Shown here: positions 12,487 through 42,639 of the stretch, in pieces | Layout: every line of letters starts with the position of its first letter | Position numbering within the stretch: the first letter of the stretch is position 1 | From: a virus | Taxonomy: Duplodnaviria > Heunggongvirae > Uroviricota > Caudoviricetes | IMG/VR virus record: IMGVR_UViG_3300026521_000571 | Reading direction: 5' to 3' (one strand) | DNA length: 43,148 nt | Position numbers and translations under genes: made by a program | The notes under the pieces: generated by a model | The model's database searches: none | Seen by the model: the letters and a program-made list of their open reading frames with translations, nothing else | Told to the model about the DNA's origin: nothing

Positions 12487-13526
12487 TTAACCGTAAAATA
12501 GGACTTTTAGTCCCAAATAACTCTAATCGGTTAAGAGGCCAACATACTCTACCAAATAGATTATTTGACTTCTTAGAATATTCTAAGAGTTCCAGTCAAC
12601 TGGAACTCTTACCTATAAATAATTTTTATAAATTGATAAAACATAATTCAATTCAAGAAATTAATGATAACTATCTTGGTTTTATTAATTTCAAACGCAA
12701 TTACCTCTCCTTACCTGATAAACTCTCTCCTATATTATCTAAAAAATTAAATGTTATGTATTACACCAACGCAATAAGCTCAATTAATTATAAAGAGTTC
12801 CAATTAACTCTAAGTAATGGTTTTTTCTACGCTCTCAAATATAATTTAAATTGGTGGTGGTCGTTCTTTCCAATAAATTCGGAAGAGTTCCAGTCGACTG
12901 GAACTCTTCCGTCACCAAAAACTATAGGCTATTATTTTAGGCGAGAAGGTTATAATAAAGAGTTAATTAGAACTGAACTTGATTATTTAAAATCAATAAA
13001 TAATGACAAGAATATTAATATAATTGGGATTGGAGACAAAAGAGTATTTTTGGACACAATTAATTTAATTCCTAATTTAAAATCAAAGTTGATTTTTTTA
13101 GAAAATAAACCAAGTTCAATTTTAGACCTAATTAATTCTCTAAAAAATTCTGGTGGGAGATATAGTGCTTTAGAACTCATTGATGACTCAATCCCAAACA
13201 CCTATTTTGAAATGAGATGGAATAATATTCCTACCGAAATAATTAATTCTGGGTTTGAGTTCAAAAGAACTGGAATACCTTCTGGGATTGATGAAATTAA
13301 TTATTTATTTGAACACCCAGATCATAAAAAAATTATAGAAATTCTGGCTGACAATTTTTATTTAATCCTTGATAAAAATTTTAGGAAAGAGTTATTTTGG
13401 ACTCAAACTCAATTAAAAAATAATTTTTATAAAAATAAAAATATACAAAATATAAACTTCCGAGAATTGTTTTGGGAAGCGATCGATAGTACACTTAATT
13501 TAATTAAAAAATGGAAGGAAATATAA
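12483..13526 (+). CDS. Hypothetical protein, possibly glycosyltransferase-fold
   Basis: 347 aa, ATGA-coupled; weak GT-B-like pattern (KTIGYYFRR, NIIGIGD); carries two long palindromes. Confidence 0.5.
   Translation: MINRKIGLLVPNNSNRLRGQHTLPNRLFDFLEYSKSSSQLELLPINNFYKLIKHNSIQEINDNYLGFINFKRNYLSLPDKLSPILSKKLNVMYYTNAISSINYKEFQLTLSNGFFYALKYNLNWWWSFFPINSEEFQSTGTLPSPKTIGYYFRREGYNKELIRTELDYLKSINNDKNINIIGIGDKRVFLDTINLIPNLKSKLIFLENKPSSILDLINSLKNSGGRYSALELIDDSIPNTYFEMRWNNIPTEIINSGFEFKRTGIPSGIDEINYLFEHPDHKKIIEILADNFYLILDKNFRKELFWTQTQLKNNFYKNKNIQNINFRELFWEAIDSTLNLIKKWKEI
12584..12611. repeat. 28-bp near-perfect palindrome (GAGTTC-N10-GAACTC type)
   Basis: taagagttccagt-ca-actggaactctta. Confidence 0.9.
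12880..12911. repeat. 32-bp perfect palindrome (GAGTTC-N10-GAACTC type)
   Basis: cggaagagttccagtcgactggaactcttccg. Confidence 0.95.
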
Positions 13527-14512: not shown

Positions 14513-15569
14513 TAATGAGTTCAGTGAACACCATAATTTATATAATAAAATTACTAAAAGTCGTGAAGAAGATGAAATTCATGATCTTGATATAAATTTT
14601 GAAAATATTACGAGAAAAGTTAAATTAGATGTTGGTAAAAAATGCAACGCCGGTTGTTTTTTCTGTTATTATAAATCAGAGCTCAACTCCCCGATGAAGA
14701 CATTAGGTGTTCTTAAAAAAGAAATTGATCTTATGAAATCGATGCGATTTGAAGAAATAGAATTAAGTGGAGGTGAGCCGACGATTCACCCAGATTTTAT
14801 TGAAATAATTAAATATATCGATTCAATTGGATTAAAAGCATCATTTGTCACAAACGCTTTTGAATTAAATTTAAATGTTCTAAAAGAACTCAAACCATAT
14901 CTAAATGATATTTTAATTAGTATTCAAGGATATCAAGAAAATCACAATAAGATACTTAGACTTCCGGAGGCCTACAATAATATTTTAGAAGTAATTGATG
15001 CTTGTAATAATTTAGACATTCCAGTTAGAATTAACACAACGGTTCATAAAAATAATATAGATAATTTATTATATATTTACGAGGATATTAAATCCAAAGT
15101 AAGAACCTGGAATTTAATTCCTATTAATTATTGGGATGATGCCAGAAAGTTAAAGAGGGAAATGCCTTATGAAAAAATATCAGAAGTTCTAGAAAAAATT
15201 TATGAAAGAGTTATGAATTCAGTCGCGACTGAATTCATAACTGGAGTTGGTCAAAAATCAACTCCAGTTATGTTGCAACATAACTCTAATCAATTAAATT
15301 TAAATATTAGATATTATCCTCTTTGTAAAATAGATCCGAAGTATAAACACTTCGTCAAAAATTATTGGCATCAATATTATGATAAAGAAGACTGGCATCC
15401 TTTTTTTATGGATACAAAAGATTTAATTTCTCATAAACAGGAATGCTTTATTCAAGAAGTTAAATCATGTTATATAAGAGATCTTCTCCAAAAGAGAAAA
15501 CCTTATTATAAAGACAAAGCTTGTCTTAACTGTCCTGATTTTATAATTTGTGATGGATATAAGCCATGA
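14502..15569 (+). CDS. Radical SAM protein with C-terminal Cys motif
   Basis: CNAGCFFC, LSGGEPTIHP, VTNA, CLNCPDFIICDG; start 14502 follows GGAG. Confidence 0.9.
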   Translation: MLFNNEFSEHHNLYNKITKSREEDEIHDLDINFENITRKVKLDVGKKCNAGCFFCYYKSELNSPMKTLGVLKKEIDLMKSMRFEEIELSGGEPTIHPDFIEIIKYIDSIGLKASFVTNAFELNLNVLKELKPYLNDILISIQGYQENHNKILRLPEAYNNILEVIDACNNLDIPVRINTTVHKNNIDNLLYIYEDIKSKVRTWNLIPINYWDDARKLKREMPYEKISEVLEKIYERVMNSVATEFITGVGQKSTPVMLQHNSNQLNLNIRYYPLCKIDPKYKHFVKNYWHQYYDKEDWHPFFMDTKDLISHKQECFIQEVKSCYIRDLLQKRKPYYKDKACLNCPDFIICDGYKP

Positions 15570-16258: not shown

Positions 16259-17211
16259 TATTCGAAGGGGTTGATCATAAAGTTCAAAGGCTTTATATAC
16301 ACTGGGATATAACTACAGTTTGTAATTTTGATTGTAGTTATTGCTATGCTAAAAAAGAGTACAGTCAAAAAGAACTCTGGTTAAAAGAAGATACCGTTGA
16401 AAATATAAAAACAGTTATAAAGGCTATTTCTATAAGCACATTACCTGTGTTTTTAGGATTACTTGGAGGAGAACCAACTCTTTCAAAACATTTCGAATTT
16501 ATTTTAAATGAGTTCAAAAGAACTCATTTCTTTGAAAAAGAAGATAATAAATTATATATTACTACGAATGGAAGTAAGGAACTATGTTGGTTTATAAACC
16601 AACATAGTTCCGATTTTTATAATAATAAAGTTATGTGGTTATTTTCTTGGCATTCGGCGCATATGTCTGGTAATTCAAATAAAGAATTTAAAGAAAAAAT
16701 AGAAGTTCTTTTGGGGAAGGGTTATAAGGTTAAAGTTAATCTTATGATACCTTTGACTAAAGAAAAGTGGGCTGACTTAAAGGAACTCTCTTTAGAGTTA
16801 ATTAAATTGCAGAAAAATTTTACCAGCCTTATTTTACACCCTCATTTTATATACAAGAATGAACACCAAATATATGAATACCCAAAAGATACAAAAACTT
16901 ATTTTAAAGAAATTTTTGAAAATATCCCAAAAGAGTTCCAAATGACTCAAATGACTCAAAAGACACTTTTAAACGACATTGAAATATTTGAGACAGGTCT
17001 TAATAATTTCAAGGGTTGGGATTGTTATTTAAATAACTATGAGATTAATCTAGGTGCAATTGTATCTAAATTTTGTGTTCAAGAAACAACCAATCTTAAA
17101 AATAATATAACGTTCTTTAAAAAAATAAAAAAAGTGGTTCCAGTTATTTGTGAACATAGTCAATGTTCATGTGATGGACTCTTAAAAATACGAAAAGAAA
17201 AGGAAATATAG
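16249..17211 (+). CDS. Radical SAM protein
   Basis: CNFDCSYC, LGGEPT, ITTNGS, C-terminal CEHSQCSCD. Confidence 0.9.
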   Translation: MAIIFEGVDHKVQRLYIHWDITTVCNFDCSYCYAKKEYSQKELWLKEDTVENIKTVIKAISISTLPVFLGLLGGEPTLSKHFEFILNEFKRTHFFEKEDNKLYITTNGSKELCWFINQHSSDFYNNKVMWLFSWHSAHMSGNSNKEFKEKIEVLLGKGYKVKVNLMIPLTKEKWADLKELSLELIKLQKNFTSLILHPHFIYKNEHQIYEYPKDTKTYFKEIFENIPKEFQMTQMTQKTLLNDIEIFETGLNNFKGWDCYLNNYEINLGAIVSKFCVQETTNLKNNITFFKKIKKVVPVICEHSQCSCDGLLKIRKEKEI

Positions 17212-17942: not shown

Positions 17943-18790
17943 TGATTATTGAAATCAAATTAACGCATTACTGTAATTTAAATTGTAGTTATTGTGTATC
18001 TATGCACTCATCAGATAAAACATTATGTGAGAAAGAGCAATTTGATTTAGAAGGATTTATTAACTTTCTGGATGAGTTCCAGTGCACTGGAACTCATCCA
18101 CGATTTAAAGAAATTAAATTCTTTATTTTTGGTGGAGAACCTTCAACAAGCAAAGATTTAATTCCTCTTGTTAATTATCTAAATAAACTGGTTGATTCAA
18201 ATAATATAATTATACAAACCAACCTCACCAATTTAAGTACTCTTAAAAAAATCAATTGCCTTATCAATATAAGTTGGCATCCGGAATTTATATCATTTAA
18301 AGAATTAATTAATAGGTTAAATAAACTACCTCAAGAAAGAATTAACGAAATAGCCTTTATGGATGTCGATGATAAATATTATAAATATTATAATATACTC
18401 AAAAAACTTTATAAAGTTGAATTTTGTCCAATTATAGAGGATATTGTACATTATGATGGACGTTGGTTGAAAAGATTAAAAGAACTTAAAAATAAAGATA
18501 TTTTTAAAGTAATCCAAAACGACGAACATTTTCATAAATTTAAATCAAATAAAAGTAATTACGATTATTGGGTTAACGAAGAGCATTCTATAGGAAAGAA
18601 ATGTTTTATAAATTACGAAGTATTATTTATTTCAAATAATAAAGTTTATGAATGTTTTAATGATATGTTTTTTAATATCAATGGAATTAATCTTAGAGAT
18701 TATGAGTACATTCCAAAAATTAAAATATGTCCTCATCAGAGATGTTTTTTTGACATGAGATATCAGGAAGAAAATTATGAAAAAAACTAG
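17942..18790 (+). CDS. Radical SAM protein
   Basis: CNLNCSYC, FGGEPS, QTN, C-terminal CPHQRCFFD. Confidence 0.9.
   Translation: MIIEIKLTHYCNLNCSYCVSMHSSDKTLCEKEQFDLEGFINFLDEFQCTGTHPRFKEIKFFIFGGEPSTSKDLIPLVNYLNKLVDSNNIIIQTNLTNLSTLKKINCLINISWHPEFISFKELINRLNKLPQERINEIAFMDVDDKYYKYYNILKKLYKVEFCPIIEDIVHYDGRWLKRLKELKNKDIFKVIQNDEHFHKFKSNKSNYDYWVNEEHSIGKKCFINYEVLFISNNKVYECFNDMFFNINGINLRDYEYIPKIKICPHQRCFFDMRYQEENYEKN
18069..18100. repeat. 32-bp perfect palindrome (GAGTTC-N10-GAACTC type)
   Basis: tggatgagttccagtgcactggaactcatcca. Confidence 0.95.
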
Positions 18791-19583
18791 TTGTGTTCAT
18801 AAGAACTATTATTTTAATTATAAAATAACATTTATGTGTAATCAAAATTGTAGTTATTGTTATGAAAAAAAAGATAACCCAGATATATGGAACAATTATT
18901 ATTTGCCTTTTAGATTAATTCAAAAAGAAATTCAATTATTTAAAATGATTGAATTTCCATGTTGGATTGAATTACTTGGTGGAGAGCCTTTGACACATAG
19001 ATATTTCAAAGAAATATTGACACTCATGGTAATTGAGTTGACCATGCACTCAATTTCAATCAGCACTAATGCAACTGCAAGAAATATTGAAAAAATGAAA
19101 ATTCCTCAAGAAATTCTAAATAAAGTTTTCTGGATGTTGTCATGGCATGAAGGCATTACTAATTTTAATAAATTCAAAGAAAATTGTGAATATCTTCTTA
19201 AAAATAATTGCCAAATGCAGGTAAATATTATGACAAAATCTCCCAATAAAGAATTTTTGACGTGGATTGAAAAACAGGATTTAACTATAAAATTTTTGGA
19301 TATTTGGGATCCTTTTGCACCATCAGAAGAAATTAAAAAAATAATGCCAACAGATGCACCAAAATATGGAGAACCTTGTAAATATTTATACAATGAAATT
19401 TTTATTGATCGTTCTATGGTGACCGCAGCTGAATGTGTTTTACCAAAAACCCCAATAAAATTTGATAAAGAATTTGTGAAAAATTTGGAACCTTATAAAA
19501 ATAAGACATGTCCAATATTAACTGGATGTAATGTACCAAACGCTGATTTATGTACACCAAATGAAAATGCGACCATAATATGA
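18777..19583 (+). CDS. Radical SAM protein
   Basis: CNQNCSYC, LGGEPL, ISTN, C-terminal Cys residues. Confidence 0.9.
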   Translation: MKKTSCVHKNYYFNYKITFMCNQNCSYCYEKKDNPDIWNNYYLPFRLIQKEIQLFKMIEFPCWIELLGGEPLTHRYFKEILTLMVIELTMHSISISTNATARNIEKMKIPQEILNKVFWMLSWHEGITNFNKFKENCEYLLKNNCQMQVNIMTKSPNKEFLTWIEKQDLTIKFLDIWDPFAPSEEIKKIMPTDAPKYGEPCKYLYNEIFIDRSMVTAAECVLPKTPIKFDKEFVKNLEPYKNKTCPILTGCNVPNADLCTPNENATII

Positions 19584-21309: not shown

Positions 21310-22354
21310 AATCGAAAGTCTTTTTGATTTATATATCAAAAAAGACAAAGACAAAGCAGATACTAGTTTTATAAATTTTATTCAGAATGATTTTACTAGA
21401 AAAGATTTCGAGTATTTAAAAGCACAAGAATATAATAATAAACTGGTTATTGAGTTTAAACCAACTGATAATTGTAATTTTAATTGTAGTTATTGTTGTT
21501 TTCATAATAAAAAATCGAAGGGAATGTCGGAATTGACTTTTAAAAACTTCATTAATTTTTTAGAATACAATATTGAAAATAATATATTTCCACAAGAAGA
21601 GTTTTTTATTTTTATTTACGGTGGTGAACCAACAATGCACCCCAACTTAACTAAATTTATTATTGAATTAAATGAGTTCAAAAGAACTCATAATAAAAAA
21701 ATAAATTTCTTGATACAAAGTAACGGGAGCATGTGGTCTCTTACTAAATTTAAAAAAGAAATAAACATTTTAAAAAATGCCAATGTTAATTTTAAATTCA
21801 GCTTTAGTTACCATCCAGAAGAAGTAAAATTAAATGATTTAATTCCAAAAATTAAATATTTAATTTCTGAGGATGCTTTCGATGTATTAACGTATATGTT
21901 GACCATTTCAAATATTAAGAAAGATATACATATGATAAATTTCTTTGAATCAGCTAATGTTCCTATTTATGTACGTACGATTTTACAAGAGTCTGAGTTA
22001 TTTAATTCAGATGGTAAATTCAAGAAATATAAAAAATATATATCAACAGATAAAGATGATGATTCTTATATTTTAACGACTAAAGATGCAAATAATAAGA
22101 TTATAAATACTAAGATGTCTTTCGAAGACTTATCAACCCAAGGTTATTTGAATTTTAATGGTTATAATTGCAGTGCTGGTATTAATAGCTTTTTAATTTC
22201 TCCTGAAGGTGAAATATATCGTTGTGATATGGATTATTTATATAAAAAAAATAGGCTACATGATGTTAATTCAGTTCAAGAATATAAACCATCTAAATGT
22301 TTAAAATGTACTCATACTTTTTGTAGTATATATTTTAGCGACAAATGGAAATAA
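21296..22354 (+). CDS. Radical SAM protein with twitch/SPASM-like C-terminus
   Basis: CNFNCSYC, YGGEPT, SNGS, CSAG...ISPEGEIYRC, CLKCTHTFC. Confidence 0.92.
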   Translation: MEDNKIESLFDLYIKKDKDKADTSFINFIQNDFTRKDFEYLKAQEYNNKLVIEFKPTDNCNFNCSYCCFHNKKSKGMSELTFKNFINFLEYNIENNIFPQEEFFIFIYGGEPTMHPNLTKFIIELNEFKRTHNKKINFLIQSNGSMWSLTKFKKEINILKNANVNFKFSFSYHPEEVKLNDLIPKIKYLISEDAFDVLTYMLTISNIKKDIHMINFFESANVPIYVRTILQESELFNSDGKFKKYKKYISTDKDDDSYILTTKDANNKIINTKMSFEDLSTQGYLNFNGYNCSAGINSFLISPEGEIYRCDMDYLYKKNRLHDVNSVQEYKPSKCLKCTHTFCSIYFSDKWK

Positions 22355-25514: not shown

Positions 25515-25542
25515 TGGGTGGAGTGCTTAAGCACTCCACCCA
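25515..25542. terminator. 28-bp perfect palindrome between convergent genes; probable terminator, contains the GAGTGC-N4-GCACTC motif
   Basis: tgggtggagtgcttaagcactccaccca; U-rich tract follows on the minus strand. Confidence 0.75.
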
Positions 25543-25811: not shown

Positions 25812-26618
25812 TTAATTTTCTCCATTTCTATTTAAATTTTCTTCTACATCAGCCTGTGCTTCATCAGCTTGTGCTTCATCAGCCTGTGCTTCATCAGCTT
25901 GCTCTTCATCAGCCTGTGCTTCATCAGCTTGCTCTTCATCAGCTTGCTCTTCATCAGCCTGCGCTTCATCAGCTTGCATTGCATCCATAAATGATGTTAC
26001 CAGTATAACTGATGCCACTTTTGCATCTGACATTTCTAACATAGATTGGAATAATAATACAACATAAACTAAAGTAATTATTACACCCCAGAATATATTA
26101 ATATATGACTCTATCCAAAATAAAAAGATAAATCCAAGAAGTATAAACCACAATACATTTAATAATTCTCTTTTTTCTATCAGTGTTTTAGCTTCCTGAT
26201 TAAGCAATATAAACATACTCCAGAAAATCTTTAGATTTTCTCTAGTTGTATCGTACCAATTCCAAAACCAGTTTGATTCCGTATAAATTAAATAGTCAGT
26301 TGACTTTAAACCCAAGTTATACATAACTTTATCTTCATCGACTGGTTTTAACCCAAGCCTATTGGTCAATGCTAAAAAATTCCAATGGAGCATCGCTCTA
26401 TAAGCCCAAGCGAAAGTGATAGGAATGACGAATACACCCATGATTAAAAATATACTAACCATTTCTAATCCGGCACTTATATCACCATGTGGTAATAGAA
26501 TATCTACAACAATTCCAACTGCCATTATTGGCAGTGCTATGAAAACATCTAAATGATATTTTCTAGGATTAATATCTTCGTTGCGAAGATTCGCAACGAA
26601 CTGATCTATGACAAACAT
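25812..26618 (-). CDS. Multi-pass membrane protein with acidic QADE[A/E] repeat tail
   Basis: About four hydrophobic segments; C-terminal pentapeptide repeat. Confidence 0.75.
   Translation of the reverse strand: MFVIDQFVANLRNEDINPRKYHLDVFIALPIMAVGIVVDILLPHGDISAGLEMVSIFLIMGVFVIPITFAWAYRAMLHWNFLALTNRLGLKPVDEDKVMYNLGLKSTDYLIYTESNWFWNWYDTTRENLKIFWSMFILLNQEAKTLIEKRELLNVLWFILLGFIFLFWIESYINIFWGVIITLVYVVLLFQSMLEMSDAKVASVILVTSFMDAMQADEAQADEEQADEEQADEAQADEEQADEAQADEAQADEAQADVEENLNRNGEN
25847..25977. repeat. 15-bp coding tandem repeat, about 8.7 units
   Basis: Units tcatcagc(c/t)tg(tg/ct/cg)ct encode QADEA/QADEE on the minus strand. Confidence 0.95.
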
Positions 26619-29292: not shown

Positions 29293-29320
29293 GAGTTAGA
29301 GTTCAAAAGAACTCTAACTC
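29293..29320. promoter_or_regulatory. Inverted repeat (12-bp arms) upstream of clpB containing the GAGTTC-N4-GAACTC motif
   Basis: gagttagagttc-aaaa-gaactctaactc in the intergenic leader; regulatory role is inferred. Confidence 0.55.
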
Positions 29321-29420: not shown

Positions 29421-29987
29421 TTAATAGCCTCTCTTGTTCCTCCAGAAGTCATAGAAAATGACGCTCTTTGGTGAGAGCTTGTTAAAGCTCCACCAAAGAG
29501 CGAACACTGTCCCTAGAAGGGCACCTAGTCCGACGAGGGCACCGAGAGCCCAAGCAACTGGGTTGTTTATAATGAGCTCCCAGTTCGATGTCACTCCAAA
29601 ATGGAGTGACACAAAGAAAGCGGCGAAAATCCAGTGATCCGGATTTTCGCCATCTTCGCCTCTTTGGGCCTTGTGTTGGAGATAAACTCCGAAAAGGCCG
29701 AGAGCCCAGGCCATAATACCTCTTAAAACTCTTTTCCAGATCGGGCCTTGGCTCGCGGCCGCGAGCCAAATGTTAGCCACTAGGGCGAATGCCCCAGTGG
29801 CTAACCAAGTAATCCCTGCCACCTCTGCATACGCTTGGGCAGTAGCTGCCCAAGCGTAATCGGTCCCTCCGTGACCGATTACAGAAATACCAGAAACCGC
29901 CACGCTGAAAAGTGTGGTCATGACTACTAGAGTCACAGAAGATTTAATCCAGAAATCTAAAGATTTCAAAACATTAATAGCTTTCAT
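29421..29987 (-). CDS. Multi-pass membrane protein; GC-elevated, hairpin-rich gene
   Basis: 188 aa, about five hydrophobic helices, AAGGAG RBS. Confidence 0.8.
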   Translation of the reverse strand: MKAINVLKSLDFWIKSSVTLVVMTTLFSVAVSGISVIGHGGTDYAWAATAQAYAEVAGITWLATGAFALVANIWLAAASQGPIWKRVLRGIMAWALGLFGVYLQHKAQRGEDGENPDHWIFAAFFVSLHFGVTSNWELIINNPVAWALGALVGLGALLGTVFALWWSFNKLSPKSVIFYDFWRNKRGY

Positions 29988-30007
29988 TATATTCTCCTTA
30001 TGAGATT

Positions 30008-30113
30008 ACACCCAATGAAAAGGGCTGCAGCATTACCTGCACTATAATATGTCTATTATTGACAACTATAAAGAACCTACCCGATGTAAGTTCAATAATA
30101 TTATTTATATACT
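30008..30113. repeat. 106-bp direct repeat, copy 1 (divergent intergenic region)
   Basis: Matches 36882-36987 with 5 mismatches. Confidence 0.95.
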
Positions 30114-30171
30114 TAATATATTTATTCTAAAACGAACATATAATAATTAAATTACATTTTAAAGGAAATAT

Positions 30172-31478: not shown

Positions 31479-32171
31479 ATGAATGTAATTATCGCGGCAC
31501 ATATCGATGATGTTGAAATAGGAATGGGAGGTATTCTAGATAAACTAGCCTCCTTAAAAGAAGAGACGAAAATAATTATTTTAAGTTCAGGAAGAAAGAG
31601 TCAGTCAGAAACCAACATAGTGCGAGAAGAAATCTTTAGAAAGAACATTTCATTTTTTAAAGGCCGGGAGTACTCTGGTCGCTTCGAGTGCTTTGTCAAC
31701 CCAATGCCGGTTGATTTGGAGTTCCATATTTATAGAGATCAACTAAGAGAATTTCTCGAAGGCACTTATAAAAACATTTTATTAGAAATACCAGCTGATG
31801 AAATTCTTAGAGCATTTACAGTATATCCTGATAATCATAATGATCATAAGATTGCTTCAGAATTAACGGATACTTGTGTGCGTTTGAACTCAAACCTCCC
31901 GAAAAAACCAAATTTGTATCTCAAATATTTTATTCCATCAAGTGCCGGTTTCGATATTCCGAAAAAGAATCTTTTTTATTTTAATTTCAGTTCTTTTGCA
32001 CTCAAGAAGAAGATGATTCAGAATTATAAAAATCTTTTCGATGGTCCATCGATGGATACCAAATATATTAAACTCTTCAATAAAATCCAAGGTCGTTTTA
32101 TTAATAAAAAGTTCGCGGAGGTATTTCATGCCGAATACATCAATGGATACTTTGGTAATTTATTTTCCTAG
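31479..32171 (+). CDS. PIG-L/LmbE-family N-acetylglucosaminyl deacetylase
   Basis: AAHIDDVEIGMGG and DNHNDH motifs; GGAG RBS. Confidence 0.85.
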   Translation: MNVIIAAHIDDVEIGMGGILDKLASLKEETKIIILSSGRKSQSETNIVREEIFRKNISFFKGREYSGRFECFVNPMPVDLEFHIYRDQLREFLEGTYKNILLEIPADEILRAFTVYPDNHNDHKIASELTDTCVRLNSNLPKKPNLYLKYFIPSSAGFDIPKKNLFYFNFSSFALKKKMIQNYKNLFDGPSMDTKYIKLFNKIQGRFINKKFAEVFHAEYINGYFGNLFS

Positions 32172-32820
32172 GAAGAGTTCTGTTGCAACAGAACTCTTCC
32201 GCCAGAATCCAAAAGAAGAAATTCCAGATTTAAATTCACTAAAAGAATTATATAAATACCTCAAATCTCCCAAGGCAATGAAAGTAAAAGAGATAATAAT
32301 TATTGATTTTACAAATCCTATTTTTTCGGAACGTCGATATCCTCGTAAAACTACGAACCTAAAAATTACAAAAGGTATATATAATTTTTTAAAGTATATT
32401 AACCAAACATCCCAGAATTTTCCAAAAATAAAATACGTTTTTTTATCTTCAGTAGGAGTTCTAGACCGATATTTTAATTTACCAGGAAGCTCCCAAAAAC
32501 AACTACGTTATAATCTCGATAAAAAACAGACAGAAGAGTTCTTAAGAACTCAAACGTTTATAAATTATATTATAATTAGATTACCTCTCTGTCCAGTTAA
32601 AAAAGAAAATCTCTTGATAAAAAATATAGGAAAGAGTTCAAAAGAACTCTTTAACTTAGATCTAGGGATCCCAGTACTTGCTATAAATAAAATAAAATTA
32701 TTTTTCGAGGCAATAAAAAATCCGGATAAGAGTGCCGAGGCACTCTTATCCGTCGAGTTCATTACAATCGAAGATACATCCAATCCTGAAAAAACTAAAG
32801 AATTTCTTCTGAGGAATTAA
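32128..32820 (+). CDS. Degenerate SDR/epimerase-like protein
   Basis: YVFLSSVGV, YNLDK, YIIIRLP; no GxxGxxG; start 32128 follows GGAGG. Confidence 0.55.
   Translation: MPNTSMDTLVIYFPRKSSVATELFRQNPKEEIPDLNSLKELYKYLKSPKAMKVKEIIIIDFTNPIFSERRYPRKTTNLKITKGIYNFLKYINQTSQNFPKIKYVFLSSVGVLDRYFNLPGSSQKQLRYNLDKKQTEEFLRTQTFINYIIIRLPLCPVKKENLLIKNIGKSSKELFNLDLGIPVLAINKIKLFFEAIKNPDKSAEALLSVEFITIEDTSNPEKTKEFLLRN
32171..32200. repeat. 30-bp perfect palindrome (GAGTTC-N10-GAACTC type)
   Basis: ggaagagttctgttgcaacagaactcttcc, starting at the last base of the PIG-L stop codon. Confidence 0.95.
32723..32752. repeat. 30-bp inverted repeat with GAGTGC-N4-GCACTC core
   Basis: cggataagagtgcc-ga-ggcactcttatccg. Confidence 0.9.
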
Positions 32821-34576
32821 TAGCCTCTTGGGCTAAATCTTTAAAGACATTCAATAGATGTATATTTGGTGCATCAAAAACATTAAACCCAGCTTTATGC
32901 AAAGCTAAATAACTATTTGAAATTTCAGATAGTTCACTATCCGAAAATCCAGAATTTATTTTCGAGTAATATCTTGTCCCTATTTTAATATCTCCTGTAT
33001 TTGAATCCAAATAATGTATTGTAATTTCAGGTCCTATGAAATTAAGCAACTTATTTAAAACACAATATCTGGATTCAACCCGCAGTTTATGCGAAGTGGA
33101 AATATGACTGAAGATCATTACTGCAGGCCCATCTTCCCTATGCAAAACCCCAAAAGAATACCATGTAAATTTAAGTTGAGTTCGGCCGAGGTATTTTATA
33201 ATTGCTGGCCCATTATCTCGATGCAAAACATCAAACTGGTAGAAATGAAGAGATAATTTTTTTATTCGACCAGTTGATTTAACCTGATGTATTTCAATCC
33301 TAGCCGGTCTATTATCTCGATGACACTTACCAAAAAGAAAATATTGATATCTATAAAAATTAAGATTATCTTCATATACTCTTTTTTCATAAGCAGGCCC
33401 ATCTTCTCGATGTCTATGATTAAATCTATACCATATTTTTTTAACTTGATTGATTTTTCCATAAGAATCAAATATGTAATTTAAACTCGCTGGCCCACCA
33501 ATTCGATGATGTTGACCAAATTTATACCACTTCTTAGTCACTGACAATACTCGTTGCCCAGTATTCTTTCTCGCTATAACAATACTTGCAGGACCATCTT
33601 CTCGATGCAGTAATCCAAATGAATAGAATTCCTTACGATATTCTTCATATTCCTCGGTTATAAACATTCCATGTTTTATCTTGAATTTGTCATAGATATA
33701 ATCTCTCTTGGCTGAAGCACCAAATTTAGACATATTTGATATATGCAAATCAAATGCTTTCTTTGTAAAATGAATACCAAAAAGAAAATATCTAACCTTA
33801 ACAGTCCTATTAGAGAGTACAATATATTCAGCAGGACCATCTTCTCTATGTTTATAACCAAACTGATAAAAATACATTTTTTTAATATCAGAGCCCCTTC
33901 TTTCAACTACAGTAGGACCATTCTCGTTATGCATTTTACCAAATTTATACCAATTATAAATTCTATATATGTGATCAACCACTGGATAAAAATCAATATA
34001 AGCTGGTCCATCCTCTCGATGATATTTATTAAATTGATAATAATCCTCCCTAAAATATTTGGTGTCGTCTTTAATTGAGAGTAATTTTACTGCAGGCGCA
34101 TTTTCTCTATGTTTGAAACCAAATACAAAAAACCAAATTTTAGTTTGCAAGTTCCCATAATCATCTATAACTGCAGGCCCATTTTCATTATGAAAATTAT
34201 TAAATTTTAACCATTGTTGGCTTTTTGCGTTGTTGGTTTTAGTCATGTAAAAAGGATGCTCATCACAATGATCAAAACCGAATTGACAAGGTTGTTTTGC
34301 ATCAGGAGTAATACTCATTTGGCATCCAAAAAAATTTTTAGAATCCGGAGAATCAAATTCAACAAGATAATCATGAAACCTAAGAGGCTTGTTATAATTT
34401 CTACAGAAATCAAAAAATCTCTGAAGTTCTCGATCACTTGATTCGAGATCTAAAAAATATTTTTCAATTAGATTCTCAAAACCACCTGTGAAATTTTCAA
34501 GTATTTGGTTGATATTTGGCCGTAATTTTTCAAACGGCCCAATATCAACCTCCTTTATTTCATTAAATATTTTCAT
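32795..34576 (-). CDS. HREDGPA-repeat protein (about 11 repeats)
   Basis: Repeats HNENGPA, HRENAPA, HREDGPA, HRIGGPA, HRDNGPA etc.; MORN-variant-like beta repeats. Confidence 0.85.
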   Translation of the reverse strand: MKIFNEIKEVDIGPFEKLRPNINQILENFTGGFENLIEKYFLDLESSDRELQRFFDFCRNYNKPLRFHDYLVEFDSPDSKNFFGCQMSITPDAKQPCQFGFDHCDEHPFYMTKTNNAKSQQWLKFNNFHNENGPAVIDDYGNLQTKIWFFVFGFKHRENAPAVKLLSIKDDTKYFREDYYQFNKYHREDGPAYIDFYPVVDHIYRIYNWYKFGKMHNENGPTVVERRGSDIKKMYFYQFGYKHREDGPAEYIVLSNRTVKVRYFLFGIHFTKKAFDLHISNMSKFGASAKRDYIYDKFKIKHGMFITEEYEEYRKEFYSFGLLHREDGPASIVIARKNTGQRVLSVTKKWYKFGQHHRIGGPASLNYIFDSYGKINQVKKIWYRFNHRHREDGPAYEKRVYEDNLNFYRYQYFLFGKCHRDNRPARIEIHQVKSTGRIKKLSLHFYQFDVLHRDNGPAIIKYLGRTQLKFTWYSFGVLHREDGPAVMIFSHISTSHKLRVESRYCVLNKLLNFIGPEITIHYLDSNTGDIKIGTRYYSKINSGFSDSELSEISNSYLALHKAGFNVFDAPNIHLLNVFKDLAQEAINSSEEIL

Positions 34577-36120: not shown

Positions 36121-36180
36121 AATAAAAAAAAATTAACCTATTTTAGGCACCTTGGGCGAAAGAAATCATAGCCCAGATGC
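36121..36180 (-). terminator. Possible intrinsic terminator after the nucleotidyltransferase gene
   Basis: TGGGC/GCCCA and CCTA/TAGG stems followed by a long T-run on the minus strand. Confidence 0.4.
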
Positions 36181-36860
36181 TATGATTTCTTGGATTTCTT
36201 GAATTCGTCTGGGTAGACGAATTCATATGTATTAAGCCAGAAGTCCAGGCCTTTGGCCTGATCAACATATTTCGCCATCGGTGGAATCGTTATCTTACGG
36301 CTCCCCCTCCAACCACCGAGAATATCTAACATTTTCATGTAGATATTCTCGGTGAACGTCACCTGTCGTCGGTCTAATTTCTTGAGGAGGCTGATGCCGA
36401 TGGCGACATCCTCCTCTAAAATCTTGTCACATAATGTGACCTGGAAATCGACTGGGTGGCCGGCCCAGTTGAAAACTCTATATTTATGGAGACTGGTTGT
36501 CCCCATGTATAAATAGCATCCGTTGAAGCTGCTAATCTCGAAGGTCGCCACCCCTTCGAGATATTTAATAGCAGCTTCAAAGATGCCGCTATCCGTTGTA
36601 AAGAAGTCATAATCTGACTCCTGGGTTGTCAAAGATGACCCCGCTAATCGTGACCCTGAAAGAGTTAGACCTAACTCTTTCAGGTTCATTTCAATTTTAT
36701 GCATATCCTCCAATCTGGAGATCGGGTTGATCTCCTTTTTCTCGGTGCCGTACCATGACGCACCGTTTGAAAATTCCGGGAATTCAATCCCTGAATTCTC
36801 AAAATAGTTAACAGCAGCCTCTAAATTCTTTAATAACTTTTTATCATTAATTATTTTCAT
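36180..36860 (-). CDS. Pol-beta-superfamily nucleotidyltransferase; GC-elevated, hairpin-rich gene
   Basis: LSGSRLAG...SDYDF (GS...DxD) motif plus later VDFQV; GGAGG RBS. Confidence 0.72.
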   Translation of the reverse strand: MKIINDKKLLKNLEAAVNYFENSGIEFPEFSNGASWYGTEKKEINPISRLEDMHKIEMNLKELGLTLSGSRLAGSSLTTQESDYDFFTTDSGIFEAAIKYLEGVATFEISSFNGCYLYMGTTSLHKYRVFNWAGHPVDFQVTLCDKILEEDVAIGISLLKKLDRRQVTFTENIYMKMLDILGGWRGSRKITIPPMAKYVDQAKGLDFWLNTYEFVYPDEFKKSKKS

Positions 36861-36881
36861 TATGTCCTCCTTACGGAAATA

Positions 36882-36987
36882 ACACCCAATGAAAAGGGCT
36901 GCAGCATTACCTGCACTATAATATGTCTATTTTAGACAACCTTAAAGAACTTACCCGATGTAAGTTCAATAATATTATTTATATACT
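36882..36987. repeat. 106-bp direct repeat, copy 2 (divergent intergenic region)
   Basis: Matches 30008-30113 with 5 mismatches. Confidence 0.95.
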
Positions 36988-37045
36988 AACTGAAGTAATT
37001 CTAAAAAACAAAGGATTCATGCAACATCAAGATATAGGAAAATAA

Positions 37046-40000
37046 ATGAATATAAGATTAGTATTTAACTCAAGAACTGGAATTCTTCGAGCAGAGAGAA
37101 GCGCTCGCTCGAACCCAAGAATAAAAAAACGGGTTCCATTTAATATGACAAGAAACTTTTGGAGCATCCCAGCGTATTCAATACTTCAGCAAATTTCTAT
37201 GCTGGATATGAAAATTCATAAAAGAAACCCACCTGGATTTCGAAAGGCTGCTAGAAATTACTATAGTCTATTACCACAAGATATTCCATTATATTTATTG
37301 GAGTTTGAGGAATTCTATAATGCTTTTGAAGATTATCTCTGGATTCAAGAACCTCAAGGATTGCGAAGACTTCTGAAGAAAGAAGTCGAGAAAACAATAG
37401 GTGTAAAACCGGCAAGTCAAAAAGCAACAATTGATGGAGTAGCCACAAGTATTTCGATTATTCTTGAAACAGGAACATCTCAATTAAAAGAAAATTTTAA
37501 AAAGCAGATAAAGAAACCATTTGATGTGTACTCAATTTTTTGGATGTATAAGACAGTTGATAAATTCTTTGGAGCGGTTAATAAGGCATCGCTTGTTTTG
37601 AACCCGAACTACAAAAAAATTATGCGAGCCGATCCAAAACGAGAACGCATTCTGAAATATTTTAATGAATCGATGTTGTATAGAAATACCACAAAATCCC
37701 CACGGGAAATCACGTACTCTAATCTTTTGACTCTTTTGAAGAATCAATCACAATCTGGAATAAAGGTTAATCTGTATTCAAATACAGGTGCTCCTTTTAA
37801 ATACATGAACTTCGAGAAATTACTTCTAGAAGATGGTAATGAGCAGTTGGTTGAAAAAGCACTCGTTGTTTATAATAATGATGATAGTTTCTTCGAGTTC
37901 AGAAGTACTTATTATTTCTTCGATCCAGAAGAAGTAAAGAAAAAACACGATGATATTTTTAATTATTTAATGAAGCCTGAGTTGCAAGATTTCATCGATG
38001 GTCTTAGGAACCTCAAAGATAAAAACACAAGCCTGAAAAATAAGGTTCCTGTTAAAAAATTAAAAGAGACAAGTTTTACAGGAACCCTGCAAGAGCATCA
38101 AGAAGAAGCATTAAGTTGGGCTTGGAGTTTAATTGAACAAGGAGCACCAGGTTTAATCCTAGCCGACGAGATGGGCATGGGAAAAGCATTAGAAAACAAC
38201 ACACCGATTAAAATTCCAGGCAGTTGGAAAAAAATTAAAAATATTAAAGTTAATGATTATGTTATTGGTAGAGATGGGTTTCCAACAAGAGTAACTGGCG
38301 TTTACCCACAAGGGATTCGCCAAATGTATAAAATTATTTTTGACGATGGACGTGAAATTGAAGCGGATGCTGAACATCTTTGGACAGTATTTATAGAAGA
38401 GAAAAATCAACAGGTTTCAACTACTAAAGAAATAATGAATTTATTGGAAAATAATAAATCAATATCTATACCGACTATAATTCCAGAATCAAATATAGAC
38501 ATAGAATCTAGATTAAAATATTTAAAATCATTAACTCAACATAGATCTCAAGAAATAATTTTAAATGATTTTGATCAAACCGGTATCAATGAATTAAAAG
38601 AATTAATTTATAGTTTAGGTGGTACATTAAAGATAATCAAAAATAAATTACAGTTTGAGTTCAAAAGCACTCTTGATATAAAAAATATTGAACCATCAAG
38701 AAAAACCGAGGCAACATGTATTTCAGTAGATAATCAAGATAAATTATTCGTCGCAAAAGATTATATTACAACACACAACACTATCTCGACAATTTCTTTC
38801 TTGAGTTCTCTGATGAAATATAAAAATTTCAAAACTATCTTAATTATATGTCCGAGTTCAGTTGTATCTGTTTGGGAAAATGAGCTAGCTCGCTTTGATC
38901 CAAAAGCAGCGAAGAAAATTGGCTCAGGAATCCAAATAATGAGCTATGAAAGAGCCATCCGAAATTCACCTAAGAAAGTAGATTTACTAATCCTAGATGA
39001 AGCCCAGAAGATTAAGAATAATAATACTTTGGCTTTTAAAAACATAAGCTTAATAGAAAAGAAGTTCGTGTGTATTTTAACTGGAACACCGATTGAAAAT
39101 AAAGTCGATGATCTATTTAGCCTCCTTCAAGTAATTAACCCAAGCGCTTGGCATCTATTTAAGATTATGAAAAAATCTTACAAAGATGTAGAAATGGTTA
39201 CTAAAATAAGGGAAGTAATAGATCCGATTTATTTACAACGACATAAGACATCGAATCAATTGAAAGCGAAGATGACTGTAGAAGAAGTTTTCATCCCCGC
39301 TCTTGATATTGAAAAGAAAATAACGAAAGAAATTAAAAAAGTATTCTCTGATAAAATGATTAAATTGAATGCTTCAAATAATCATGATTTTTATCAGACA
39401 CAAGTTGCTTTGACTGGACTTCTACGATTAAGACAAGCGGTTAGTTTGCCTAGTCAACTACCTGATGAATTAATTGAACACTTTGATCCAAAAGTCGGTA
39501 GAGTTGCTCAACATGTTGATCCAAGTAAAGCTAAAAAGTTGGTAGAGATTTATAAAAAAATACATCAGAATAAGCAGAAGGTTGTTGTATTCACTATGTT
39601 TTCTGGGACTATAAAATATCTCAAAGTGCTTCTAGAAAAAAATGGAGCCAATGTATTGACTCTCTCTGGACAAGATAGTAGTCAAAAAAGAAAAATCATG
39701 ATTGAAGAATTTCAGAGACCGGATTCAAAATATGATGTTTTTATAATTATGCTTAAAGCAGGAAATTCTGGGATTACCTTAACTAACGCAAATAATGTTG
39801 TACTCTATGACTTATGGTATAATCCGGCTGTAGTTGCACAAGCACTTGCTAGAGTCCATAGAATTGGTCAACAACTTGATGTTACTGCTTATATATTAAT
39901 TACTCAAGATTCAGTTGACGAAGCAATTAATAAAATATTCTTGAATAAAAATAAATTAATTGATGCTTTTAGTAAACCAAAAGACGCGTTGAAACCAGAT

Positions 40001-40054
40001 CTAAAAAAGAGCGAGATCGCTAATTTTGGAAAGGATTTATTTCAACAAAAATAG
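37046..40054 (+). CDS. SNF2-family helicase/translocase with an intein in motif I
   Basis: LADEMGMGK|intein|T, ICPSSV, LILDEAQKIKN, LTGTPIEN, VVVFTMF, AGNSGITLT, YDLWYNPA...QALARVHRIGQ. Confidence 0.93.
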   Translation: MNIRLVFNSRTGILRAERSARSNPRIKKRVPFNMTRNFWSIPAYSILQQISMLDMKIHKRNPPGFRKAARNYYSLLPQDIPLYLLEFEEFYNAFEDYLWIQEPQGLRRLLKKEVEKTIGVKPASQKATIDGVATSISIILETGTSQLKENFKKQIKKPFDVYSIFWMYKTVDKFFGAVNKASLVLNPNYKKIMRADPKRERILKYFNESMLYRNTTKSPREITYSNLLTLLKNQSQSGIKVNLYSNTGAPFKYMNFEKLLLEDGNEQLVEKALVVYNNDDSFFEFRSTYYFFDPEEVKKKHDDIFNYLMKPELQDFIDGLRNLKDKNTSLKNKVPVKKLKETSFTGTLQEHQEEALSWAWSLIEQGAPGLILADEMGMGKALENNTPIKIPGSWKKIKNIKVNDYVIGRDGFPTRVTGVYPQGIRQMYKIIFDDGREIEADAEHLWTVFIEEKNQQVSTTKEIMNLLENNKSISIPTIIPESNIDIESRLKYLKSLTQHRSQEIILNDFDQTGINELKELIYSLGGTLKIIKNKLQFEFKSTLDIKNIEPSRKTEATCISVDNQDKLFVAKDYITTHNTISTISFLSSLMKYKNFKTILIICPSSVVSVWENELARFDPKAAKKIGSGIQIMSYERAIRNSPKKVDLLILDEAQKIKNNNTLAFKNISLIEKKFVCILTGTPIENKVDDLFSLLQVINPSAWHLFKIMKKSYKDVEMVTKIREVIDPIYLQRHKTSNQLKAKMTVEEVFIPALDIEKKITKEIKKVFSDKMIKLNASNNHDFYQTQVALTGLLRLRQAVSLPSQLPDELIEHFDPKVGRVAQHVDPSKAKKLVEIYKKIHQNKQKVVVFTMFSGTIKYLKVLLEKNGANVLTLSGQDSSQKRKIMIEEFQRPDSKYDVFIIMLKAGNSGITLTNANNVVLYDLWYNPAVVAQALARVHRIGQQLDVTAYILITQDSVDEAINKIFLNKNKLIDAFSKPKDALKPDLKKSEIANFGKDLFQQK
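38186..38779 (+). mobile_element. Class 3 mini-intein (198 aa) with decayed LAGLIDADG remnant
   Basis: Starts with Ala (ALENNT); block B ADAEHLW, block F TCISV, block G TTHN/T give the W-C-T triad; splicing restores DEMGMGKT. Confidence 0.9.
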
Positions 40055-42609: not shown

Positions 42610-42639
42610 TCTAGAGATAGGCTTAAGCCTATCTCTAGA
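42610..42639 (+). terminator. 30-bp perfect palindrome after the capsid gene (terminator or mRNA-stabilising stem)
   Basis: tctagagataggcttaagcctatctctaga; no clear U-tract follows. Confidence 0.6.

Follow-up and report, generated by a model that had tools for sequence, protein, structure and literature searches.

A phage gene for a probable nucleotidyltransferase saturated with hairpins and preceded by a repeated leader element

Coding sequences are usually thought to hold modest, scattered structure. In the moron concept of Juhala and Hendrix, a phage genome acquires an independent unit consisting of a promoter, a gene and a terminal hairpin, which is lodged between backbone genes and shows a deviant base composition, and a model of quasi-palindrome mutation in phage T4 is reportedly due to Ripley. 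The template switch has been documented as a mutational mechanism generating hairpins (Monttinen and Loytynoja, 2022; PMC8794818), including coding cases in yeast (PMC8604942). Promoter-early stem-loop (PeSL) cassettes have been described in T4-type phages (Arbiol et al., 2010; PMC2839356), and palindromic elements inserted in frame are represented by the Rickettsia palindromic elements and the repeats of the repetitive extragenic palindromic (REP) type (PMC3733652). Here we describe a locus at positions 36160-37010 of a 43,148-nucleotide stretch of DNA from an uncultured phage of the Caudoviricetes (IMG/VR record IMGVR_UViG_3300026521_000571; this whole stretch is called the window below). 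Its minus-strand gene, at 36180-36860, encodes a probable nucleotidyltransferase (NTase), is saturated with hairpins and is led by a repeated putative promoter/leader element. The cassette combines known kinds of features, namely template-switch hairpins, cassettes of the PeSL and moron types and mRNA structure in a coding sequence; our literature search yielded no report on protein genes of phages saturated with hairpins in this way.

The folding of the 36180-36860 gene was confirmed to lie far beyond chance. The minimum free energy of the whole coding sequence (CDS) is -263.6 kcal/mol, as compared with -174 +/- 6.7 kcal/mol in dinucleotide shuffles (z -13.4). In synonymous-codon shuffles, which preserve the protein and the codon usage, the z-score is -9.0, whereas those of three control genes range from +0.8 to -1.4; since protein and codon usage are held constant here, the extra folding depends on the placement of the synonymous codons. 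The mean z in sliding windows of 150 nt is -6.6 in this gene and between +0.7 and -2.6 in 37 other genes of the window, the sole other outlier being a gene encoding a membrane protein at 29421-29987 (-5.5). Perfect stems of at least 9 bp occur at densities of 5.9 per kb in the NTase gene and 10.6 per kb in the membrane gene, and approximately 60% of the CDS of the former lies within perfect local stems. The eight stems listed in an earlier account of this DNA based on its letters alone (the sequence-only reading) were all found where that account had placed them when the sequence and the fold were inspected, and three others were added, at 36314-36354 (15 bp, the longest), 36773-36805 and 36160-36191 (13 bp, spanning the stop codon). 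Chance or an artefact was ruled out by an independent metagenome contig of 1072 nt, L001, carrying the same gene with equal or stronger folding. A known structured RNA was ruled out as well, no Rfam family having been matched at gathering thresholds over the whole window, and so were insertions belonging to a repeat family (resembling REP, Rickettsia palindromic or miniature inverted-repeat transposable elements), since the stems are all unique and no word of at least 11 nt is common to the two genes.

The open reading frame is preceded by a ribosome-binding site (RBS), TAAGGAG, and its comparison with L001 gives a nonsynonymous divergence (dN) of 0.072 and a synonymous divergence (dS) of 0.51 (dN/dS 0.14). 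Among 1.8 billion representatives, the only credible relatives of the window protein (P0001) are the allele P0002, which is 88% identical, and P0004, which is 34% identical and has exactly the same length, so that the known members of the family are three metagenomic sequences; P0005 (1964 aa), a repetitive protein matching a short segment 12 times, was treated as spurious. The dN/dS ratio, the RBS and the homolog of the same length rule out the possibility that this is not a gene, and these comparisons indicate that 36180-36860 is a real gene under purifying selection. No relatives of the NTase were found in IMG/VR, where protein scans were run with the NTase and with P0004, or in the GTDB genomes; IMG/VR likewise yielded no match for the alignment of the membrane protein, for the downstream neighbor of 224 aa or for the two element patterns, and no match to INPHARED was obtained by nucleotide (blastn) or protein (tblastn) search.

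The residues L-S-G-S-R-L...S-D-[YW]-D-F-F are invariant in P0001, P0002, and P0004, and the GS-x11-DxD motif which they contain fits the active-site signature of the Pol-beta type, hG[GS]-x(9-13)-Dh[DE]h. In addition, D145, in the context Q-[VI]-[TS]-L-x-D-K-I-L, is conserved in the three sequences and is placed at a predicted strand end in a model with a mean predicted local distance difference test score (pLDDT) of 56. This AlphaFold model, obtained with three sequences, reaches a pLDDT of 65-92 over residues 50-160, the C-terminal 60 residues being unmodelled; a two-sequence model with a pLDDT of 39 was not used. The best Foldseek matches are weak (Pol lambda, Pol mu, TdT, and an H. pylori NTase, E 0.03-0.1), VIA-align gives Z values of 6.0-6.8 with Pol X, MenT1, TdT, the CCA-adding enzyme, Pol beta, and ANT(2''), folds of the Nqo5 type occurring at similar Z, and the Atlas leads are NTP_transf_2, AbiEii, and NTP_transf_5 (TM 0.40-0.46). 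The protein shows no Pfam match above threshold, no PHROG match and no relevant PDB sequence match, a three-sequence profile having been used in the case of PDB. The motif and the weak fold matches suggest that the product probably has a nucleotidyltransferase fold of the Pol-beta type. The nucleotidyltransferase label given by the sequence-only reading is plausible in view of the motif, the later Asp conserved in the 34% identical homolog and the mostly Pol-beta-type fold matches.

The diverged allele retains the hairpin load, part of which has been built anew at other positions. The alleles compared are two, those of the window and L001, without an outgroup. Downstream of the stop codon, 147 of 147 bases are identical, while 89 of the 681 bases of the CDS differ (13%); the upstream leader shows 13 differences in 162 bases plus an insertion of 82 nt (L001:100-185), which contains three small hairpins and is without parallel elsewhere in the window; hairpin modules are thus both gained and lost by the leader itself. 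Since the divergence is confined to the CDS between identical flanks, the history of the cassette must be deeper than that of the backbone. L001 folds more strongly than the window allele (-281.5 kcal/mol; synonymous-shuffle z -13.9). The introduction of 89 random substitutions into either allele, with the same mix of codon positions and of transitions and transversions, gives -204 +/- 12 kcal/mol, which means that random substitution at the level of divergence of L001 would cost about 60-80 kcal/mol. Both alleles fold far below this random expectation, and the structure has therefore been maintained and not merely inherited. Based on the L001 structure, synonymous third-position differences affect 11% of the sites in helices of at least 6 bp vs. 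34% of the unpaired sites (p 5e-4); on the window structure, the same comparison gives 17% vs. 27%, which is not significant. Two base pairs are double-compensated between the alleles, one of which turns GAGTTAG/CTAACTC into GGGTTAG/CTAACCC. These arms are indeed common to the 36655 stem and the 29293 inverted repeat, as the sequence-only reading had noticed, and their standing as a sequence motif is weakened by L001, where the pairing has been kept rather than the motif.

The local pairs common to both alleles number 119 out of 210. This turnover of the stem positions, which is unlike a defined RNA architecture, bears on the idea that the transcript, or hairpin fragments cut from it, might have a second role beside the coding one, as a decoy or sponge directed at a host sensor or nuclease. 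An extreme and maintained density of stable stems would suit such a dual function, and since the trait is shared by two unrelated proteins, the common product could be an RNA; the facts that both proteins are conserved and that Rfam gave no match point the other way, and we take a dual-function RNA to be most improbable.

As regards the origin of the stems, three of them are perfect in L001 only, and each results from a cluster of substitutions on one arm. At mRNA nt 264-277, 11 of the 14 bases differ, and the arm seen in L001 reproduces, exactly inverted, the window-type 11-mer at nt 253-263, just upstream; the change rewrites TTDSGI to TCCKEV, and in the window allele the same segment lengthens the neighboring long hairpin instead. 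In the 9-bp stem of L001 at nt 218-226/232-240, one arm bears four changes and the opposite arm a single one, the corresponding numbers being three and one in its stem of 10-12 bp at nt 595-604/612-621 (p 0.017-0.04). We infer that these one-arm clusters, including the direction of the changes, are the footprint of template-switch (quasi-palindrome) mutation. The stems might in that case be a neutral by-product of a template-switch hot spot, in which quasi-palindromes breed more of their kind, in a weakly constrained accessory gene deriving no benefit from them. The fact that perfect stems are built despite their cost in amino acids, as in the case of TCCKEV, is in line with this explanation, as are the lack of strand asymmetry and the palindrome-prone nature of the whole genome. 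It is difficult to reconcile with the real constraint on the protein shown by the dN/dS of 0.14, with the GC enrichment of third positions and stems, neither of which is produced by copying alone, with the paucity of synonymous differences in the long shared stems, with the sparing of the 5' 45 nt in both genes, and with the fact that only 2 of 39 genes are affected, both of them behind the same element. We therefore consider a neutral by-product very unlikely.

The base composition of the gene was also claimed to be unusual in the sequence-only reading, and this proved correct: its GC content is approximately 43%, well above that of its neighbors, in a window which is AT-rich (mostly 22-35% GC, with a mean near 30%), and the rise is concentrated at the third codon positions. 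The GC contents at positions 1, 2, and 3 (GC1, GC2, and GC3) are 0.41, 0.34, and 0.53, as compared with a GC3 of 0.21-0.32 in the control genes. Across the cassette sequences compared, GC3 is 0.50-0.53 and stem GC 0.48-0.56, GC1 and GC2 are native-like, and unpaired third positions are also GC-raised (0.38-0.45). In both cassette genes, the initial 45 nt are weakly folded and have a GC content of 0.16-0.22 vs. 0.45-0.52 in the body. An AT-rich, weakly folded start matches the needs of efficient translation initiation, which, together with the GC enrichment of third positions and stems, hints at a constraint at the RNA level.

The sharp contrast in GC with the neighboring genes raises the question as to whether the cassette is a moron imported recently from a GC-richer phage or host pool, the hairpins and the GC being the legacy of its source. 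The GC3 raised at unpaired sites too, the history of the cassette, separate from that of the identical flanks, and the succession of promoter, gene and terminal hairpin, which is the classic moron layout, are all compatible with this origin. Nevertheless, the rise in third-position GC with native-like GC1 and GC2, values which fit an AT-rich phage and not a donor with 45-50% GC, speaks against a mere transfer from a donor richer in GC. So do the AT-rich first 45 nt of the CDS, the rarity of the homologs (none in the GTDB genomes, IMG/VR, or INPHARED) and the ongoing rebuilding of hairpins in this lineage, and we know of no donor lineage with hairpin-saturated genes. An imported moron is therefore, in our opinion, unlikely.

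The second copy of the repeated element immediately precedes the NTase gene, as the sequence-only reading had stated. This reading described the element as 106 bp long; the two-copy repeat is real, while its length is greater, amounting to 131 nt at 90% identity in a repeat search and to approximately 146-166 nt with blastn and nhmmer, and it runs through the RBS to ATGAAA. Each copy starts approximately 150 nt upstream of a minus-strand gene and contains four or five small hairpins. On the minus strand, copy B contains TATAAATA, an 8-bp stem-loop GAACTTAC...GTAAGTTC, three more small leader hairpins and the RBS TAAGGAG, followed by ATG. The fold z of the leader is about -2.9, the 8-bp stem-loop of one copy was flagged as terminator-like, and the sigma-70-like matches are weak. 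The TATAAATA box occurs 23 times in the window vs. 13 expected, which is a mild enrichment; we do not claim that it is a late promoter of the T4 type, as the enrichment is weak and the box is not consistently placed before structural genes. Only two copies of the element are present in the window (nhmmer E 4e-55 and 7e-52, no further match being significant), and the genes directly behind them are exactly the two hairpin-saturated ones, a coincidence which would arise with a probability of 1/741 if 2 of the 39 genes were picked at random (a post hoc calculation). The check proposed in the sequence-only reading, based on sliding-window z-scores, was carried out in the window, where the peaks coincide with the first minus-strand genes after both copies (2/2). 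The plus-strand genes diverging from each copy are ordinary (z -0.6 and -0.75), as are the minus-strand neighbors that follow downstream (z +0.4 and -1.2). In its middle part, the L001 leader agrees fully with copy A of the window, on the side of the membrane gene, and not with copy B, which suggests that the copies exchange sequence.

The NTase and the membrane protein are unrelated, in keeping with the earlier claim (BLASTP E 0.09, in addition to the absence of any common word of at least 11 nt in their DNAs), and since two unrelated proteins carry the hairpin load, it does not come with descent from a particular protein family. From this the sequence-only reading had concluded that the structure belongs to the expression context and not to gene ancestry: the trait does follow the element-led cassette, but a cause lying in the expression context is not supported, and the same data fit a mobile, recombining class of cassettes with a common mutational and selective regime.

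Whether the structure acts at the level of RNA or DNA was also considered, and the evidence is mixed. The stems are near-pure Watson-Crick, G-U accounting for 6-11% of the pairs vs. 7-19% in control genes, and the internal G-U pairs number 29 in the sense and 22 in the antisense orientation, which shows no asymmetry and is uninformative as a strand test. DNA hairpins or cruciforms, or protein-binding dyads, might serve recombination or mobilization, replication, packaging or control by a dyad-binding protein, mRNA folding being a side effect. Stems which are nearly all Watson-Crick and strand-symmetric, and breakpoints of divergence adjoining hairpins, would be expected on this basis, and long perfect palindromes abound in the genome, as do GAGTT-N(3-30)-AACTC dyads (29 observed vs. 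0.94 expected in the window), one of the stems carrying such a dyad. On the other hand, the sequences of the stems all differ, and hence provide no common binding site, the dyad-like stem has lost GAGTT in L001 while keeping its pairing, the stems occupy the whole CDS and not just its ends, and the sparing of the 45 nt closest to the start codon is not predicted by a role of the DNA. A DNA-level function therefore seems quite unlikely to us.

In the window as a whole, outside the two cassettes, perfect stems of at least 9 bp occur at 1.0 per kb, which, according to a rough estimate, is several times what the base composition predicts. Long perfect palindromes with arms of 13-16 bp and a 2-nt loop are spread through otherwise ordinary genes, and the GAGTT-N(3-30)-AACTC dyads, which mostly span 16 or 22 bp in total and mostly lie within coding sequences, are a genome-wide motif. 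Because the genome is rich in palindromes and has an excess of these dyads, the phage lineage seems to be generally prone to inverted copying, and the two cassettes would be extreme cases.

The explanation which we favor, and to which we give an even chance, attributes the origin of the stems to template switching and their retention to selection for a folded transcript, within a recombining promoter-led cassette. Positions 36160-37010 would form a self-contained accessory-gene cassette on the minus strand, composed in this order of the repeated promoter/leader, a putative ribosome landing zone of approximately 45 AT-rich nucleotides, a GC3-enriched coding body and a stem spanning the stop codon. 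Replication would briefly copy neighboring sequence in the inverted orientation, giving a new stem, and stable stems would be favored by selection on account of the advantage offered by tight folding of the transcript; the trait would be tied to the class of cassettes marked by the repeated element and not to the ancestry of the protein. As regards the purpose of the folding, we infer that the likeliest benefit would be a longer transcript life or resistance to nucleases cutting single-stranded RNA. In a more specific form of this idea, which we rate as rather unlikely, the cassettes would be counter-defense units with armored mRNAs, the hairpins, continually renewed by template switching and kept by selection, shielding the transcript from host nucleases acting on single-stranded RNA (toxins of the HEPN type, Cas13-like or anticodon-nuclease-like enzymes, or RNase E), and the NTase might be an antitoxin-like neutralizer of such a nuclease.

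Several observations weigh against selection for a folded transcript fed by template switching. On the window structure, single changes broke 26 pairs and kept 10. Site-level chimeras of the two alleles fold like the window allele (-265 +/- 8 kcal/mol), so that co-adaptation is visible for the L001 states only, and with two alleles and no outgroup, gains are indistinguishable from losses. Given the Watson-Crick nature of the stems and the lack of G-U asymmetry, the data fit a role at the DNA level no less well than one at the RNA level. Lastly, template switching alone leaves the raised GC3, including that at unpaired third positions, unexplained.

The features of the two cassettes and of the window are listed in Table 1. 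The stop-spanning stem at the 3' end of the NTase gene is not followed by a run of T. All the long stems of this gene are codon-aligned, and their arms therefore encode mirror peptides such as E-F-V/D-E-F: the codon-aligned register (pairing of position 1 with 3 and of 2 with 2) comprises 54% of all pairs for the window allele and 68% for L001, as compared with 33% expected. In the membrane gene at 29421-29987, a bias toward this register is not clear. A protein-level hairpin test intended for P0004, based on runs of mirror-compatible residues, gave a z of 0.8 with P0001 itself, so this test is powerless.

Table 1. Coordinates of the cassette features and of other inverted repeats and motifs in the window.
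Feature	Position	Strand	Remarks
Copy B of the repeated putative promoter/leader element	36861..37010	-	Matches 30002-30132 at 90% (36876-37006)
Copy A of the same element	29988..30132	-	
Sister cassette gene, unrelated membrane protein of 188 aa, hairpin-saturated (z -14.3)	29421..29987	-	
Perfect 12-bp hairpin, GAGTTAGAGTTC/GAACTCTAACTC, close to the sister gene on its 3' side	29293..29320	-	Counterpart of the stop-spanning stem of the NTase gene
CDS of 226 codons, probable Pol-beta-fold nucleotidyltransferase, hairpin-saturated	36180..36860	-	Fold z, dN/dS, homologs
AT-rich, weakly folded or unfolded first 45 nt of the CDS	36816..36860	-	GC 0.18 (L001 0.16) vs. 0.45 in the gene body
13-bp perfect stem, 6-nt loop, spanning the stop codon, 3' boundary of the cassette	36160..36191	-	100% identical in L001
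11-bp perfect hairpin in codon register, encoding E-F-V-(Y-P)-D-E-F	36200..36225	-	Identical in L001
6-bp stem (36246-36260)	36240..36266	-	10-12-bp stem in L001 via 3 + 1 arm changes, p 0.017
15-bp perfect stem (36314-36328/36340-36354), 11-nt loop, longest of the gene	36314..36354	-	0 differences in L001 over 41 nt
Imperfect hairpin, 20-nt arms (75% complementary), core GAGGAGG/CCTCCTC (36384-36416)	36379..36421	-	
Two short hairpins	36426..36472	-	GTCACA/TGTGAC (36426-36440, 6 bp); ACTGGG...CCCAGT (36451-36469, 6 bp) with inner GGCCGGCC
Composite hairpin, 12-bp outer and 10-bp inner stem (36535-36562)	36523..36580	-	
Two L001-private stems (mRNA nt 218-240 and 253-279), 4-11 one-arm substitutions	36582..36643	-	Window allele pairs otherwise
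14-bp perfect stem (36655-36684), 18-nt arms at 94%, containing GAGTTAG/CTAACTC	36651..36688	-	Compensatory A-U to G-C in L001
Hairpins GGAGATC/GATCTCC (36717-36735, 7-8 bp), CGGTGC...GCACCG, and EcoRI-site-rich stem 36773-36805	36717..36805	-	
Long perfect palindromes	2937-2970, 12880-12911, 15209-15242, 16578-16611, 18069-18100		
Long perfect palindromes (continued)	25515-25542, 32171-32200, 32723-32752, 42610-42639		
GAGTT-N-AACTC dyads, examples	8437, 12587, 12885, 16510, 18074, 21674, 23678, 29293, 32175, 32634		
C-x3-C-x2-C motif sites	16321-16358, 18837-18874, 21473-21510 and neighbors		

The phage carries head genes of the T4 type (a prohead protease and a Gp23-like capsid protein), along with genes encoding a ClpB-like ATPase, an SNF2 helicase interrupted by a Hint domain and several radical-SAM proteins, and the protein collection assigns the window proteins to a contig of 107 kb. 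In the SNF2-family helicase (37046-40054), an insert of the Hint/homing-endonuclease type follows the DEMGMGK motif (Pfam Hom_end_hint, E 1e-6), and the first residue of this insert appears to be Ala and not Cys or Ser. The protein of 593 aa encoded at 32795-34576, which gave no Pfam match, consists of approximately 20 repeat units Y/F-x-F-G-x-x-H-R-E-D-G-P-A with a periodicity of 81-90 nt. At least nine tandem 15-nt units are present at 25814-26000, in the 3'-terminal part of the minus-strand gene 25812-26618, where they encode an acidic tail rich in Asp, Glu, Ala, and Gln. The motif C-x3-C-x2-C (C-N-x-x-C-S-Y-C), typical of radical-SAM enzymes, is present in a minimum of four paralogs located in the 16-22 kb block.

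The interest of this locus lies in a protein gene under purifying selection which is almost wholly double-stranded as RNA and remains so despite sequence divergence. If the explanation favored here is correct, inverted copying and selection jointly lay a second, structural code over the gene, which would be a natural counterpart of the engineered structure-maximized mRNAs used to obtain a longer mRNA life. The locus would then provide a test bed for the protection of phage messages from host RNases by mRNA folding, for the sacrifice of protein sequence to structure and for the movement of accessory genes among T4-like phages by means of repeated promoter cassettes. If the armored-mRNA idea held true, the NTase message would have to survive the very attack which its product counters.

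Among the described systems, the PeSL cassettes resemble this locus in that a short repeated module composed of a promoter-like box and a stem-loop stands ahead of non-essential ORFan genes in T4-like phages, and in that the flanked genes have a history of their own; recombination between the copies is a probable further resemblance. In the window, two element copies approximately 88-90% identical each precede an orphan gene, and the L001 leader, the middle of which is that of copy A, together with the CDS 13% diverged between identical flanks, is consistent with exchange; no presence/absence polymorphism or mini-circle indicative of PeSL-like gene shuffling was seen in the window and L001. 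PeSLs consist of a promoter and a terminator, and no structure imposed on the downstream coding sequence has been reported, whereas the window element, in which the promoter is putative, continues as a structured leader of approximately 100 nt up to the RBS. The cassette is similar to a moron in its shift in composition and its terminal hairpins, its promoter and terminator being putative; unlike what occurs in morons, the deviant composition concerns mainly the third positions and the stems and does not amount to a donor-like amino-acid or codon profile, and saturation with hairpins lies outside the moron concept. With palindromic elements it has in common the presence of hairpin-forming DNA inside or beside protein-coding sequence, but the Rickettsia and REP palindromes are copies belonging to repeat families, whereas in the present case each of the stems has its own sequence and no word of at least 11 nt is common to both genes. 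The window protein shares the signature with the minimal NTases of the Pol-beta type (the MNT antitoxins, the MenT/AbiEii toxins, the ANT/Lnu adenylyltransferases, and the Pol X palm), its later conserved Asp may correspond to their third catalytic carboxylate on a downstream strand, and its predicted alpha-beta-alpha-beta-beta core gives weak matches to the enzymes of this superfamily (VIA Z 6-7, Foldseek E 0.03-0.1), from which it differs in lacking any Pfam, PHROG, or PDB sequence match and in belonging to a family of three known members. Lastly, the documented template-switch systems (PMC8794818, PMC8604942) show, like L001, one-arm clusters giving an inverted copy, multi-base compensation and perfect Watson-Crick stems. 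The cases described so far concern stems occurring singly in RNA genes or one-off events in coding genes, whereas the stems described here cover approximately 60% of a CDS, occur in two unrelated genes, are accompanied by a raised GC3 and are linked to a repeated promoter element.

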